Assembly: GCA_005787525.1 (NCBI GenBank) | Contig: SYAR01000041.1 | Coordinates: 1 to 62,184 of the forward strand | Reading direction: 5' to 3' | From: Rickettsiales bacterium | Lineage (GTDB): Bacteria; Pseudomonadota; Alphaproteobacteria; Rickettsiales; UBA1997 | Length of the DNA stretch: 62,184 bases | Part shown: positions 19,781 through 57,930 of the stretch, in pieces | How the letters are laid out: each line of letters opens with the position of its first letter | Position numbering within the stretch: the stretch's first letter is position 1 | The notes under the pieces: model-generated | Told to the model about the DNA's origin: nothing | Database searches by the model: none | What the model saw: only the letters and a program-made list of their open reading frames with translations | Translations under genes and position numbers: made by a program

Positions 19781-20731
19781 ATGACAAACAAAAATTCTAA
19801 AAAAGCCTTTTCCTTGGTTGAAATTTCAATCGTAATTTTGATTATCGGCTTGTTAATAGCTGGAATTTCAAAGGCCGGCGATATGATATTTGATGTAAGT
19901 TTAAAATCCGCAAGCTCATTAACAAAAGGAGCAAAAGTTGGTCGTATGCCAGGTTTGGCTTTGTGGTTAGAAACTACTAGCAACGAATCAATTCTTGAGA
20001 AAGAAAGATATGATAATACAGATATTTCAATTTGGCGCGATATTAATCCGCAATCATCTTCGAAATTTATTTTTAAAAAAGTTGGAGCGCCAAAATATGT
20101 GGAAAAAGGGCAAAATAATTTACCTGCGGTTGGATCTTTAAGTGGTGATAATTATTTCATACCTTATACTTCAGAAACCAGTACAACTGTTGCCGCTTAT
20201 CAAGCAAATCAAATTTTTTCTTCCGGCACTTTGTTAACAATTTTTATGGTTTTGAAACCTAAGGCAATTGCAGCAGATTTACTTTCTTTTTGCCCATACT
20301 CTACTGGATCAAATTTAGATGCGTGCACTACTTCCGCTAAGTATATTGGTCTGGGTTTAACTGCTAGTGGTAATGTAGTATTTAATACTGTGGGTGGGAC
20401 GGCCGCTGCTGCAGCTACAAGTACAATAACATCCACTAATTCTTATACTCTTAAAAATTTAATTGTAGTTTCTGCCATAAAAGATGCAACGGATAATCTA
20501 AAATTAGCTGTAAATGGAGCAAGTGCGGCTACAGCAGTTGCTAGCACTAATAAATTAATGACTTCTTCTTTTAATGGAACCTTTAGAGTTGGTGGTGTTC
20601 TCGCTACTGACGTTGAGATTTATGAAATTATTGTATTTGCTTCAGCGTTGAGTGATACTGATAGATTAGTTGTTGAGACTTATCTTGGAAAAAAATATAA
20701 TGTTGCAATGACCAAGACTACGACTTTATAA
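19781..20731 (+). CDS. Prepilin-leader protein with LamG/ConA-like domain (paralog 1)
   Basis: KKA|FSLVEISIVILIIGLLIAG class III signal; family motifs LALWLETT, WRDINP and YEIIVF...VETYLGKKY. Confidence 0.8.
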   Translation: MTNKNSKKAFSLVEISIVILIIGLLIAGISKAGDMIFDVSLKSASSLTKGAKVGRMPGLALWLETTSNESILEKERYDNTDISIWRDINPQSSSKFIFKKVGAPKYVEKGQNNLPAVGSLSGDNYFIPYTSETSTTVAAYQANQIFSSGTLLTIFMVLKPKAIAADLLSFCPYSTGSNLDACTTSAKYIGLGLTASGNVVFNTVGGTAAAAATSTITSTNSYTLKNLIVVSAIKDATDNLKLAVNGASAATAVASTNKLMTSSFNGTFRVGGVLATDVEIYEIIVFASALSDTDRLVVETYLGKKYNVAMTKTTTL

Positions 20732-20790
20732 ATTATTAAATTTATTAATTAAATTTGACTAAAAAATAAAAATCACTTTCAATTAAATAT

Positions 20791-22506
20791 TTATTTTTCT
20801 TCGAGTAATTTTCTGGAGGCGGACATCGCCTCGGGGCTTATTTCCTCGCCCGAAAGCATGCGAGCGATTTCGTTAATTTTTGAATCCTTATCCAAAATTT
20901 CAATTTTAGTTTTTACTTTTCCGCCAATTTCACTTTTACTAATCTTTAAATGCGAATCGGCTTTGGAAGCGATTTGCGGTTGATGAGTGACGACCAAAAT
21001 TTGCGAAGCTTTGGCGAGAGTTCGTAATCTTTTGCCGATAGCGTCTGACGTGCTTCCACTAACTCCCGTGTCAATTTCATCGAAAATTATTGTTGGCACC
21101 GATTTGACATCGATTAGAGCCACTTTTAACGCCAGCATGAATCGCGATAATTCTCCGCCCGAAGCGATTTTGGTAATTTCGTCAAAATTATTTTTATTAA
21201 GCGAAGCCTTGAAAATCGCCTTCTCAAAGCCATTTGGAAAATAATTTTTAGATTGAGAAGAATTTTTCTCATCAGAATTTGATATTTGATTCTCGATAAT
21301 TTCCACCAAGAATTTAGTGCCCGCCATTTTTAAAAATTCAAGCTCATCTTCAACTTTTTTCGCCAATTCGATGGCGGATTTTTTGCGTTTTTTACTTAAA
21401 TCTTGAGCGATTTTTTGATATTTTTCAAAATAGTCTTGACGCTTGATAATTAAGTCTTGCGACAATTTTTCTTCATGATTTAAACTACTAAGTTTTGTTT
21501 GAGAATCTTGAGCTAATTTTTGCAATTCATTGGCGTTGCAATTAAATTTGCGACTCAAATTGCGAATGATAAATAAACGTTCTTCAATTTCATCTTTGGA
21601 ATCTTGCGATGAATTTAATTCTTTGCAAATTTGTTCAAGATTTTTTATCGAATCTTCGATTTCATTAATTTGAATATCGGTTTTTTCGCTTAAAGAGAAA
21701 AAATTTTCGGCTTCACTTTTCAAAAAATTTTCGATCAAATTATGATTTCGTGATAAAACTTTTTGCGATTGAAACAAGCTTGAGCTTGCTTCCGTCAAAG
21801 AATTTTTAATATCGGCAATAAAATTCAAAATTTTTTCTTTGGCAATTAAATGATCTTTTTTTTGCACTAAAATTTGCTCTTCATTTTCAAAAATTTTAGC
21901 GTCGTTAATTTCATTTATCACATGTTCGAGATAATCTTTTTCACGTTCAATCGCCGATTTTTTTTCTTCAAAATCCGCAATTTGATTATCAATTTTTGAG
22001 AGCTCATCATAAATTTTTTTCAAATCTTTATTAAGATTTTGATTGGAAGCGAATTCGTCGAGAATTATCAAGTGATTAGCGGAATTGAGCAGTCCTCGCT
22101 GTTCATGTTGACCATGAATTTCCACCAAACTTTCGCCAATTTTAGCGAGTAAATTTACGCTAATCGGCACGTCATTTACAAAAACTTTACTCGAAATATT
22201 TTCGGAAAGTGTGCGTCGGATAATGAGTTGATGCGGATTTTGAGAATTACTAATTTCATTTGAGACTAAAATTTCTTGGCATTGCGGATTTGAAGAAATA
22301 TCAAATTCGGCGATAACGTTCGATTTATTATCATGGCTTCCAATTAGGCGACTGTTGGATCGAAAGCCGATCGCCAAACCAAGAGCATCGAGTAAAATTG
22401 ATTTGCCCGAGCCCGTTTCGCCCGACAAAATGCACAAGCCTTTTTCGAATTCAATTTCCGCTTTGTCAATCAAAACAATGTTGTTGATAATTAGTGATTT
22501 TAGCAC
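20791..22506 (-). CDS. recN: DNA repair protein RecN
   Basis: GETGSGKS, EIHGQH, ASGGELSR, FDEIDTG, VTHQPQ. Confidence 0.96.
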   Translation of the reverse strand: MLKSLIINNIVLIDKAEIEFEKGLCILSGETGSGKSILLDALGLAIGFRSNSRLIGSHDNKSNVIAEFDISSNPQCQEILVSNEISNSQNPHQLIIRRTLSENISSKVFVNDVPISVNLLAKIGESLVEIHGQHEQRGLLNSANHLIILDEFASNQNLNKDLKKIYDELSKIDNQIADFEEKKSAIEREKDYLEHVINEINDAKIFENEEQILVQKKDHLIAKEKILNFIADIKNSLTEASSSLFQSQKVLSRNHNLIENFLKSEAENFFSLSEKTDIQINEIEDSIKNLEQICKELNSSQDSKDEIEERLFIIRNLSRKFNCNANELQKLAQDSQTKLSSLNHEEKLSQDLIIKRQDYFEKYQKIAQDLSKKRKKSAIELAKKVEDELEFLKMAGTKFLVEIIENQISNSDEKNSSQSKNYFPNGFEKAIFKASLNKNNFDEITKIASGGELSRFMLALKVALIDVKSVPTIIFDEIDTGVSGSTSDAIGKRLRTLAKASQILVVTHQPQIASKADSHLKISKSEIGGKVKTKIEILDKDSKINEIARMLSGEEISPEAMSASRKLLEEK

Positions 22507-56130: not shown

Positions 56131-57025
56131 ATCAAAAATTATTGTTATTTCGGGAGCGACGGCGTCAGGTAAATCAGCGGTCGCCATGCAAATTGCTAAA
56201 ATTTATAACGGAGCGATAATTAACGCCGATTCGTTACAAATTTATCGCGATTTACCAATTTTATCGGCACAACCCAATGCGGAAAATTTTAAAGAAGTCG
56301 AGCATTTTTTATATGGAATTTTAGATTCAAATAAAAAAATTTCGGTGGGAATTTGGTTGAAAATGGTCGCCGAAATTGTTGAAAAAATTCAACAAGAAAA
56401 TAAAATTCCAATAATTGTTGGTGGCAACGGCATGTATATTTCAAAGCTGATTGATGGCATTAATGAAATTCCAGAAATTGATGAAAAATTTCGTCTTCAA
56501 GCGCAAGATTTATATTTAGAAATCGGGCATGAAAAATTTCAAGAAAATTTTGGCAATGATAAAATTATTGATAAGCAAAAATTATTACGAGCTTGTGAAG
56601 TTTTTTTGCAAACTGGTAAAAAAATTGAATTTTTTCAACAGCAACCGAAAAAAAAACTTTTGGAAAATCAAAAATTTATTCATTTAAATTTAAATCCGTC
56701 GCGTCAAGAAATTTATAAAAATTGCGATGAAAGATTCGGAAAAATGTTGGAAAATAATGTGATAAAAGAAGTAGAAAATTATTTAAAAAATAATAATGAT
56801 TTAAATTCTCCAATCATTAATACTCTAGGATTTAAAGAGATTCTAGAATTTTTAAATGAAAAAATTTCTCGCGAAGAAATGCAAAAGCTTGCATCGCAAA
56901 AAACCCGCAATTATGCTAAAAGACAACTCACTTGGTTTCGTCATCAATTTGATGAAATTTTGTTTTGTGAAAATTCGATCCAATTAAACAAAATTATTTA
57001 CAATATTTTGAATAAAAATCTATGA
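56117..57025 (+). CDS. miaA: tRNA dimethylallyltransferase
   Basis: GATASGKS, NADSLQIY, VGGNGMY, TRNYAKRQLTWF. Confidence 0.95.
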   Translation: MLKSKSKIIVISGATASGKSAVAMQIAKIYNGAIINADSLQIYRDLPILSAQPNAENFKEVEHFLYGILDSNKKISVGIWLKMVAEIVEKIQQENKIPIIVGGNGMYISKLIDGINEIPEIDEKFRLQAQDLYLEIGHEKFQENFGNDKIIDKQKLLRACEVFLQTGKKIEFFQQQPKKKLLENQKFIHLNLNPSRQEIYKNCDERFGKMLENNVIKEVENYLKNNNDLNSPIINTLGFKEILEFLNEKISREEMQKLASQKTRNYAKRQLTWFRHQFDEILFCENSIQLNKIIYNILNKNL

Positions 57026-57930
57026 AAAATTTTTCAAAAAATCTTAAGGCATTTTCATTGGTTGAGATCTCGATTGTAATTTTAATTATTGGAATTTTAA
57101 TTACAGGAATTTCGAGTGGCGCCGATTTATTTAATGATTATAAATTAGCGACCGCGCGAAAATTAACGATGGAATCACCAGTTCCCAGAATTGCTGATTT
57201 GGGTTTATGGCTTGAATCAGTTTCTGAAAAATCTTTGATAAATAATAATGATTCTATAATAATTAAAAATGGCGAACTTGTTAAAAAATGGTTAGATATT
57301 AACCCTCTAAACACAAGCAAACCCTTCCTTGAGCAAGTTGATCAAACTGCAATGCCCACTTATGTGAGCGATGGCATCAACAACCTTCCATCCGTTAAAT
57401 TTGACAGCGCAAATCCACAAATGAAAATGAAGGGGAGTTTATCAGAAATTTTTAGCCTTGAAAGCACAATCTTTATGGTCCTTAATCCAGATTCGGTTGT
57501 TGCAACAAGCGATAGACCAGTCTCTGTAATATTTTCTTTTGGCTCGCTTGTTCACCCAGCCTTGATAATTGAATCTTTTTATGATCAGTTTAATACCAAT
57601 GTTACATATCTTTATAAGGATGGCGTCCAAAGGGAGTTAATATATACTTCTGCAAAATCTAACAGAACTCAAATTTATAAAAGAGTTTATAATCCACTCA
57701 TTAAGCAATCTTATGTTGATATTAATGGAGCCCAAGCTTCATCCACCGCTTTTACATCGGGAAATTATGTTGGACCAGTTTCAATTTCATTGGGAAATCA
57801 TCCCCTAGGAGTATTCAGAACTTTTGGAGGCTTAGTTGGCGAATTTATAATTTACAATCGTGCTCTGACCAATGTCGAAATCAAGCGTGTTGAAAATTAT
57901 CTTAAAGCTAAATGGGGAGTTAAATATTAA
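57022..57930 (+). CDS. Prepilin-leader protein with LamG/ConA-like domain (paralog 5)
   Basis: LKA|FSLVEISIVILIIGILITG, LGLWLES, WLDINP, GLVGEFIIY...VENYLKAKW; ATGA overlap with miaA. Confidence 0.8.
   Translation: MKNFSKNLKAFSLVEISIVILIIGILITGISSGADLFNDYKLATARKLTMESPVPRIADLGLWLESVSEKSLINNNDSIIIKNGELVKKWLDINPLNTSKPFLEQVDQTAMPTYVSDGINNLPSVKFDSANPQMKMKGSLSEIFSLESTIFMVLNPDSVVATSDRPVSVIFSFGSLVHPALIIESFYDQFNTNVTYLYKDGVQRELIYTSAKSNRTQIYKRVYNPLIKQSYVDINGAQASSTAFTSGNYVGPVSISLGNHPLGVFRTFGGLVGEFIIYNRALTNVEIKRVENYLKAKWGVKY

Follow-up and report, generated by a model that had tools for sequence, protein, structure and literature searches.

Introduction

Among characterised type IV filament subunits, PilC of Streptococcus sanguinis comes closest in architecture to the proteins described here. 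It combines a class III signal peptide, a short pilin stem and a sandwich of the concanavalin A/laminin G (ConA/LamG) type, and carries the C-terminal helix motif ...E.I.[FY]...L......Y...K[WY]. The lectin module of PilC binds glycans and has been modelled at the tip of the pilus (PMC9934059, accessible text), and IPR012902 and PF13385 are listed among the frequent modular-pilin architectures (PMC8179133, accessible text). Expanded families of dispersed prepilin fusions are described from Planctomycetes, with at least 41 N_methyl plus SBP_bac_10 (DUF1559) proteins per genome (PMC8567305, accessible text). The present text concerns five genes for pilin-LamG fusion proteins in a 62,184-nucleotide (nt) stretch of DNA from a Rickettsiales bacterium of the UBA1997 lineage. 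That whole stretch, called the window, is contig C34 of assembly G000 (1.46 Mb in 92 contigs; 84.8% complete). With a probability of about 0.6, the family to which the five genes belong is read as a repertoire of lectin-headed pilins carried on a retractile type IV pilus and used for attachment to hosts or surfaces.

An earlier note on this DNA had proposed an adhesin repertoire, a reading drawn from sequence that is kept conditional here, and had known of no characterised system with the same layout. The latter was too strong: the modular-pilin architecture is already known from PilC, and dispersed expansions of prepilin fusions are known from Planctomycetes, there with a different domain. 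The window family has the leader, the short stem, the sandwich and the C-terminal motif in common with PilC. Unlike it, however, the family consists of proteins of 290-330 amino acids (aa) with no immunoglobulin (Ig)-like module, with Ala at -1 and with about 20 scattered copies in a diderm alphaproteobacterium, whereas PilC has about 480 aa, an extra Ig-like module and Gly at -1, works with PilA and PilB, and is encoded by a single copy inside a 22-kb pil operon of a Gram-positive bacterium. Because there is no Ig-like module (the helix ends at residue 48 and the sandwich starts at residue 58, in proteins of 290-316 aa), the window genes are not PilC orthologues and share only its architecture class. 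The planctomycetal family is likewise dispersed and expanded, but it has a different C-terminal domain, occurs in another phylum with large genomes, and implies neither host association nor a lectin fold; no SBP_bac_10 or HX9DG match was obtained from Pfam or NCBIfam at E ≤ 1 in any of the five window copies.

What appears new is that LamG pilins, in about 20 copies, form almost all of the pilin complement of a reduced genome, a situation found in no paper searched (supplementary tables not covered); the same holds for their conservation as a trait of an epibiotic Rickettsiales family, the turnover of their slots and the swapping of their heads. Below, G116 is a genome of the same genus as G000, L-numbers denote related loci, and window paralogs 1 to 5 are P0001 to P0005 (Table 1). 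Ratios of nonsynonymous to synonymous substitution rates (dN/dS) are pairwise Nei-Gojobori estimates.

Prepilin leader and head domain

All five open reading frames (ORFs) of 290-316 aa were open as described earlier, and their leader and scaffold motifs were recovered among the 50 invariant columns of the five-way alignment, in which identity to paralog 1 was 31-38%. The common leader was ...KA|FSLVE[IL]S.VILIIG.LI.G, with A9, F10, S11, L12, V13 and E14 invariant in all five (Ala at -1, Phe at +1, Glu at +5), which agrees with the class III leader that had been claimed. TIGR02532 was above its cut-off of 16.3 bits in every copy (20.3 bits in paralog 1), and PF07963 (N_methyl; cut-off 21.2 bits) in three of five, the other two scoring 18.0 and 20.1 bits. 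Further invariant columns were found in the ILIIG.LI.G helix, at R55/L59/W62/E64, W85..I88 N89, P104, N112..P115 and F155.V157, and towards the C-terminus at E282.I284...L290...E299.Y301 L302..K305. Residues A8, F9 and E13 (paralog 3 numbering) were at least 90% conserved in the 83 homologues from which the family profile (A2) was built. Orthologues in other metagenome-assembled genomes (MAGs) kept the reading frame with dN/dS of 0.15-0.36, and the window genes are thus real genes rather than chance ORFs.

The tandem pair formed by paralogs 3 and 4 was identical in its first 52 residues (36061-36216 against 37006-37161), with DNA about 84% identical (over 286 nt). Identity of 52 residues despite 84% DNA identity argues for strong purifying selection on leader and helix. 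Recent gene conversion in this pair was considered and rejected, as the DNA is only 84% identical.

PF13385 (Laminin_G_3) passed its gathering threshold of 27.6 bits in one of the five copies, paralog 3 (31.1 bits). Weak matches to Gln-synt_N in paralog 4 and to Ribosomal_L28e in paralog 5 were far below cut-off and were disregarded. Paralog 3 alone was modelled with AlphaFold2, from the 83-homologue alignment (model md847f6fd18fa; predicted local distance difference test score, pLDDT, 91.2; predicted template modelling score 0.87). Leader, long helix (pLDDT 80-96), sandwich and C-terminal helix followed one another (Table 1); the long helix led straight into the sandwich, with no separate conventional pilin head. 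The model had 360 Foldseek matches in the PDB at E ≤ 0.001, the best being carbohydrate-binding domain 4 of the arabinanase AbnA (5hon; E 1e-8). PilC was matched as 7oa8 (E 4e-8; template modelling score 0.55 on the query) and as 7oa7, with 12-14% identity in the structural alignment. The other top neighbours were a cyanophage tailspike, CBM40 modules, pentraxin, trans-sialidase lectin domains and, in clostridial toxins, the lectin-like half of the binding domains. Against the PDB, the family profile matched a surface-layer-domain protein (4qvs; E 2.6e-5) and S. sanguinis PilC (7oa7; E 3e-4), the alignment to PilC extending through the common C-terminal helix motif. Model, structural neighbours and profile agree that the head, as predicted, is a ConA/LamG jelly-roll, which is what the earlier note had supposed, and on the model the window proteins are classed as modular pilins.

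Conservation was uneven along the protein. Over the 18 intact paralogs of the conservation profile, median identity was 53% for residues 1-55, 24% for residues 56-255 and 39% for the C-terminus.

Family size and the conventional pilin

The family is large in G000, as had been expected from its density in the window. The family profile gave 24 matches, corresponding to 22 LamG-pilin loci and one N-terminal-only match, a 265-aa pilin on C26 without LamG head. Nineteen of the 22 loci were intact and full-length (on 14 contigs), one was cut by a contig end (C80), one had an internal TAA (C22) and one was in two pieces (C14). A leader regular expression recovered 23 prepilins and one false match; the leader motif was present at 23 of 23 loci, Ala at -1 in 22, and an upstream ATG in 22 of 23. 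TIGR02532 was passed by 20 of 25 candidates, all but one being members of the LamG family. As profile, leader expression and TIGR02532 agree, all prepilins that could be recognised, with a single exception, are LamG fusions. One family member of 413 aa (G000:C53:3586-4827) was the only one with Gly at -1, and had a C-terminal tail rich in Cys, Thr and Ser.

Homologues of the 265-aa pilin numbered 1268, most of them 60-92% identical, and a Cys pair at the C-terminus was invariant. Between genera it was 62% identical, against 31-59% for the LamG copies. Its weak profile matches in the PDB were all major pilins; its model (pLDDT 84) had Clostridioides difficile major pilins and CofA as best Foldseek neighbours (E 0.04 and above). 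From these features it looks like the candidate major (structural) subunit.

Several LamG-pilin copies abutted or overlapped the upstream housekeeping gene, in the upstream regions inspected, and from this arrangement they probably ride on the transcripts of those genes. By eye, with no motif finder used, the 110-nt upstream regions had no common promoter or sigma-54-type motif.

The numbers invite the thought that the LamG pilins are alternative major subunits, each forming a different homopolymeric filament through switches of expression (phase or antigenic variation). They outnumber the conventional pilin about 20 to 1, and as the copies have their own start codon and a full leader, each could be expressed alone. 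The 265-aa pilin is nonetheless single-copy and far better conserved, as is expected of a structural subunit, and copies abutting or overlapping housekeeping genes do not suggest switching; invertible or slippery elements were not noticed, no systematic search having been made. Alternative subunits are thus very improbable.

Pilus machinery

An assembly lacking any type IV filament machinery would not suit a repertoire of pilus-borne adhesins; in G000 an extension ATPase, PilT, a platform protein, a secretin and PilD were all present (Table 1), with Pfam T2SSE, T2SSF, Secretin and Peptidase_A24 above cut-off. The prepilin peptidase, reported earlier as pilD, was the sole Peptidase_A24 match in the assembly (one match from 5 candidates) and was 52-62% identical to orthologues with the same neighbours in G116 and G146; it had no NCBIfam match at E ≤ 1e-3. 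One TAA was flagged within a wider match of the PilT-family gene. The extension ATPase had an MshE-type N-domain that binds cyclic di-guanosine monophosphate (NF053729; 42.5 bits against a cut-off of 38).

Each machinery gene stood alone among housekeeping genes, and there was no pil operon in G000. The secretin gene adjoined nuoF, and the platform gene lay between a deformylase/formyltransferase block and genes for AAA_26 (PF13500) and an amino-acid kinase. Since the machinery genes are scattered too, dispersal is a property of the genome and not peculiar to the pilins.

A VirB11 ATPase was encoded at G000:C45:13981-14970 (NF010475; 577 bits against a cut-off of 389). Judged by its sequence, it belongs to a type IV secretion system such as Rickettsiales typically have, present in addition to the pilus system.

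The machinery bears on whether the heads leave the cell envelope at all. The prepilin pathway might serve only as anchor and export route, with cell-bound lectins held in the inner membrane or in a short pseudopilus like that of a type II secretion system (T2SS), where they would capture polysaccharide or nutrients or organise the envelope. For this it can be said that ATPase, platform and secretin scored alike against GspE/GspF/GspD and pilus models, that the search for PilM gave only weak partial matches, that 23-kDa heads carried on short stems would be bulky in the body of a filament, and that the planctomycetal N_methyl plus SBP_bac_10 proteins, also dispersed and numbering at least 41, fractionate with membranes (PMC8567305, accessible text). 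Even so, the PilT-family retraction ATPase scored above its cut-off, a conserved conventional pilin with a C-terminal Cys pair is available for a filament, and PilC, the closest characterised relative of the architecture, is a pilus component. A PilT retraction ATPase marks retractile pili, not T2SS. Cell-bound lectins are on balance unlikely, and such weight as they retain comes from the missing alignment and priming components.

Distribution among relatives and in wider databases

The nearest public loci were in lake MAGs labelled Rickettsiales or Alphaproteobacteria. In the order-wide screen (E ≤ 1e-10; 11 candidates scored per genome), the family profile matched 76 of 201 genomes, including all 11 other genomes of the window's family. 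Full searches of five family genomes gave 15, 21, 16, 24 and 4 matches, of which roughly 13, 17, 14, at least 14 and 2 were full-length; some of these genomes also had fragments and copies interrupted by stops. Copy number across the family thus ranged from 2 to about 20. A few paralogs conserved one-to-one among relatives would have spoken against a variable repertoire, and this was not the pattern: matches ranged from 4 to 24 per family genome and slots varied. A "core" pair in the 2-copy genome G159 was considered and dropped, its copies matching no particular G000 paralog (25-36% identity).

In genome G022, from a related genus, at least five pilin-LamG matches opened frames of 641-713 aa, roughly double the normal size (C8:23334-24170, C2:102947-103783, C1:25221-26057, C1:194267-195097 and C16:18876-19715); such lengths suggest that these pilins carry two heads or a further domain at the C-terminus. 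At G098:C3:52273-54651, family fragments (57-249 aa, one with a TAG) lay beside intact copies, in what looks like a decaying tandem array.

Outside the window's family, another family of the order (f4) had full-length pilin-LamG genes in fewer copies, and in several families of the order only the LamG part occurred, in repeated form within open frames of 1,000-12,000 aa. An exhaustive profile search of 1.84 billion representatives gave 76,410 proteins at E ≤ 0.001, of which 4,194 reached E ≤ 1e-30; among the best 150 representatives, 142 were giant multi-LamG proteins and 8 were pilin-LamG proteins of about 300 aa. The giants, found in other families of the order and in many metagenomic organisms, contain LamG units of the subtype seen in the window family, matching profile positions of about 55-295 with the C-terminal helix included and repeated 4-23 times per protein, but have no prepilin leader, are 1,200-12,000 aa long and presumably use other routes of export and anchoring. 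They are probably giant adhesins. Examples in the order were G128:C44 (a 12,446-aa open frame), G058:C8 (3,877 aa), G024:C56, G191:C42 and G142:C86. As a lead only, clusters with N_methyl plus Laminin_G_3 were commonest in Minisyncoccota in an Atlas listing and also occurred in Bacillota, and those with Pilin_N plus Laminin_G_3 occurred in archaea.

Slot turnover, rates and recombination

The earlier note had asked whether slots are fixed while their contents vary; the slots themselves varied between relatives. The glpX-recN slot held a family gene in 7 related loci and in G116 (one or two copies by genome; two in G116). Three of the four window slots were unoccupied in G116, in which miaA and recO were 37 base pairs (bp) apart with no family gene between them, no family gene lay 3' of nuoE, and oxyR and dut were on different contigs with no family copy near either. 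The oxyR-dut slot was shared with L039, with flanks 79-91% identical in aa and the gene 63%. In G146 the miaA-recO gap (L131; G146:C14, 3682-4148) was about 460 bp long and contained two unrelated ORFs of 83 and 88 aa, so this junction, as far as its sequence goes, seems to accept different inserts.

For the window copies the best identity in G116 was 31-44% (37% for paralog 2 and 32% for paralog 4). In a tree of 20 copies from G000 and 10 from G116, starred support joined C25, both C18 copies, C64, C34_36061 (with C80) and C34_19781 to G116 genes, and C60 joined a G116 gene only via long branches; tblastn added a better G116 counterpart for C60 and one for C26_7898. No close counterpart in G116 was found for the copies at 31321, 37006 and 57022, for the C40/C58/C79 clade or for several other copies. 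As some paralogs pair with G116 and others do not, the repertoire consists of an older shared set and lineage-specific additions.

In the glpX-recN slot the family gene evolved faster than its flanks. Against L025 it was 90% identical in aa (dN/dS 0.33; dS 0.15) and the flanks 96-98% (dN/dS 0.05-0.08; dS 0.20); against L027 it was 62-66% identical (dN 0.24; dS 0.67) and the flanks 96-99% (dN 0.01-0.02; dS 0.26-0.37). Overall, dN/dS of this gene was 0.33-0.36, compared with 0.02-0.08 in the flanking genes. The helix part was constrained like the flanks (dN/dS 0.046; L031). The excess in rate was located in the LamG part, where sliding-window dN/dS was 0.45-1.1, not significantly above 1.

Such rates also raise the prospect that the paralogs are decaying baggage, drifting under relaxed constraint in a small population and forming no working repertoire. 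Their dN/dS was 4-15 times that of their neighbours, 2 of 22 loci were disrupted in G000, and fragment clusters occurred in relatives (G098:C3; pieces in G022). This is set against 19 of 22 loci intact in a streamlined genome, gene-wide dN/dS well below 1 over large divergence, core motifs invariant across the 83 homologues and a trait kept in every other family genome, all of which make decay extremely improbable.

Exchange between paralogs was evident in the C40 copy. From about 115 nt upstream through its first approximately 430 nt it was 92-94% identical in DNA to C79, and over its last 127 nt 81% identical; its central approximately 430 nt were unrelated to C79 and resembled C58 at 62-75%. 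The 6-kb flanks of the C40, C79 and C58 loci shared nothing. This mosaic between unrelated flanks suggests that dispersed paralogs have exchanged the variable half of their heads. Duplication of the same locus from a second strain was considered as the source of the likeness and rejected, again because the flanks share nothing.

Neisseria pilS cassettes are silent and have no 5' leader. The window family resembles the Neisseria pilE/pilS system in its conserved ends around a variable centre and in a segment moved between copies (C40/C79/C58). It differs in that the leader is present at 23 of 23 loci and in that the shared tracts are 81-94% identical rather than identical. No identical tracts were found between paralogs; the best was 87% over 545 nt, with 100-nt windows at 92-94%. 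With no identical tracts and a leader in each copy, this is not a silent-cassette system of the pilE/pilS type, and the level of identity of the shared tracts indicates exchange over evolutionary time, not a programmed process still under way.

Turnover of this kind could be driven by enemies, the changing exposed heads escaping phages or grazers and acting as shields or decoys more than as adhesins. Pili are common phage receptors. The heads diverge fast relative to the flanks, and presence or absence at slots together with mosaic recombination is a pattern typical of surface proteins under antagonistic selection. The fold family nevertheless consists of ligand-binding modules, the same LamG subtype is repeated 4-23 times in adhesin-like giants of 1,200-7,000 aa, and escape alone needs no set of about 20 simultaneously intact copies. 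Variation driven mainly by enemies is therefore quite improbable.

Proposed function and the points against it

The preferred reading, lectin-headed pilins on a retractile pilus, can be set out as a series of steps. Each preprotein would be anchored in the inner membrane by its hydrophobic helix, as sequence and model support. The single PilD would cut after Ala at -1 and methylate Phe at +1, the motif and the gene of the enzyme having both been found. The LamG pilins would then become part of a retractile pilus, most likely at its tip or close to it. The filament itself would be built from the 265-aa pilin by the PilB/MshE-like ATPase, the PilC-type platform and the secretin, and retracted by PilT, for all of which genes were observed. 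The LamG head would bind a surface ligand, most likely a glycan to judge from its fold and structural relatives. On the comparisons above, the approximately 20 scattered heads turn over by duplication to new sites, fast divergence of the head and recombination between paralogs. Attachment to and recognition of the surface of a host cell would be the likeliest use.

Several observations weigh against this reading. PF13385 was below threshold in three of five copies (22.2 bits in paralog 5; 16.4 bits each in paralogs 2 and 4), and paralog 1, which scored 396 bits against the family profile, had no Pfam LamG match; that the five are homologous to one another is clear. ATPase, platform and secretin reached no equivalog-level NCBIfam cut-off. 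PilM_2 gave weak partial matches of 24 and 21 bits in frames of 443 and 352 aa, which may be FtsA/MreB-like; PilN, PilO and PilP were not searched for. Despite the MshE-type N-domain of the ATPase, the assembly, at 84.8% completeness, yielded no GGDEF domain. The fold match of the 265-aa pilin to major pilins was weak, even at its best E value. No core minor pilins of the GspH-K/PilVWX type were seen among the G000 prepilins and no PilA/GspI-like partner was found; with every prepilin but one a LamG fusion, the priming of a filament is hard to explain. The dN/dS windows above 1 rested on 1-8 synonymous changes, with gene-wide values below 1; diversifying selection is not supported by dN/dS, and the values would also suit relaxed constraint. 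As the genome is a 92-contig MAG, its assembly quality affects both the copy numbers and the mosaic. Finally, the link to a host comes from the main text of one preprint.

In that preprint, UBA1997 was found in freshwater only, as small rods making up to 4% of cells in spring, and was described as the most abundant environmental Rickettsiales lineage, placed between free-living and intracellular relatives (10.1101/2023.01.31.526412, main text). By fluorescence in situ hybridization with catalyzed reporter deposition, cells were attached to planktonic eukaryotes identified as cryptophytes. The preprint states that nothing further could be learned about how the two are associated, and its main text did not contain the words "pilin", "adhesin" or "LamG" (10.1101/2023.01.31.526412). 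As UBA1997 has been reported attached to cryptophytes, attachment to and recognition of a host is the likeliest use of the lectin-headed pilins.

Episymbiotic Saccharibacteria offer a parallel, being epibionts with small genomes that bind their hosts by type IV pili (PMC11623550, abstract). Their hosts, unlike those considered here, are bacteria. No report of a 20-copy LamG-pilin family in Saccharibacteria is known to us.

A tentative extension, more doubtful than the pilus reading itself, would have an extracellular Rickettsiales epibiont recognise its hosts by means of the LamG-headed pilins. Each head would be specific for a different glycan of cryptophytes or other protists, the heads carried would set host range and seasonal success, and new specificities would arise when genes are copied to new slots and when paralogs swap the variable half of their heads. 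Such a recombining repertoire would have been the stage of attachment before cell entry arose on the line to intracellular Rickettsiales.

Present in each of the other 11 sampled family genomes, these genes are a concrete candidate for the attachment apparatus of an epibiont. They provide defined proteins for work on glycan and host binding, and markers for tracing the host specificity of strains through time series from lakes. In pilus biology the case would stand out in that modular lectin pilins are the norm, where elsewhere one is a single accessory subunit, and the priming of such a pilus then calls for an explanation.

Genomic context of the window genes

Coordinates of the window genes, of the parts of the modelled copy and of the machinery genes are given in Table 1. 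The neighbours were the housekeeping genes named before (rpmG/recN, oxyR/dut, nuoE/tlpA and miaA/recO), and the window genes were not part of a pilus operon.

Table 1. Positions of the LamG-pilin genes and of the genes for their predicted processing and assembly. Positions without a contig name refer to the window.
Feature	Position	Strand	Remarks
Paralog 1 (P0001, 316 aa)	19781..20731	+	leader MTNKNSKKA then F; LamG-type head; rpmG/glpX-recN slot
Paralog 2 (P0002, 294 aa)	31321..32205	-	between oxyR and dut
Paralog 3 (P0003, 294 aa)	36061..36945	+	first of tandem pair, 3' of nuoE; modelled copy
Paralog 3, leader peptide, residues 1-8 (MKNFHKKA)	36061..36084	+	predicted PilD cut after Ala8
Paralog 3, alpha-1 helix, residues 11-48, pilin-type assembly helix	36091..36204	+	DSSP on AlphaFold2 model
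Paralog 3, LamG/ConA-like beta-sandwich, residues 58-270	36232..36870	+	hypervariable second half, about 150-255
Paralog 3, conserved C-terminal helix, residues 276-290, E..VEKYLSKKW motif	36886..36930	+	AlphaFold2 model, alignment
Paralog 4 (P0004, 290 aa)	37006..37878	+	second of tandem pair; followed by thioredoxin-fold TlpA/ResA-like gene
PilD-like prepilin peptidase, 256 aa	53941..54711	+	PF01478 (Peptidase_A24), 41.5 bits; cut-off 26.5
Paralog 5 (P0005, 302 aa)	57022..57930	+	between miaA and recO; start overlaps miaA stop
PilB/GspE-like extension ATPase	G000 C25:7637-9382		526 bits, below equivalog cut-off; MshE-type N-domain
PilT-family ATPase, 342 aa	G000 C54:1935-2963		TIGR01420, 437 bits; cut-off 319
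GspF/PilC-like platform	G000 C72:15205-16401		T2SSF above cut-off
Secretin, nearest MshL/GspD	G000 C53:24484-26061		Pfam Secretin above cut-off

Upstream of paralog 1 lay glpX and a 64-aa ORF for ribosomal protein L33 (rpmG), and downstream recN. Scans of the 62-kb window (1-62184) gave no tRNA genes and no Rfam families at gathering score. The guanine plus cytosine content of the window was 28-43%, and was highest at 26-28 kb.

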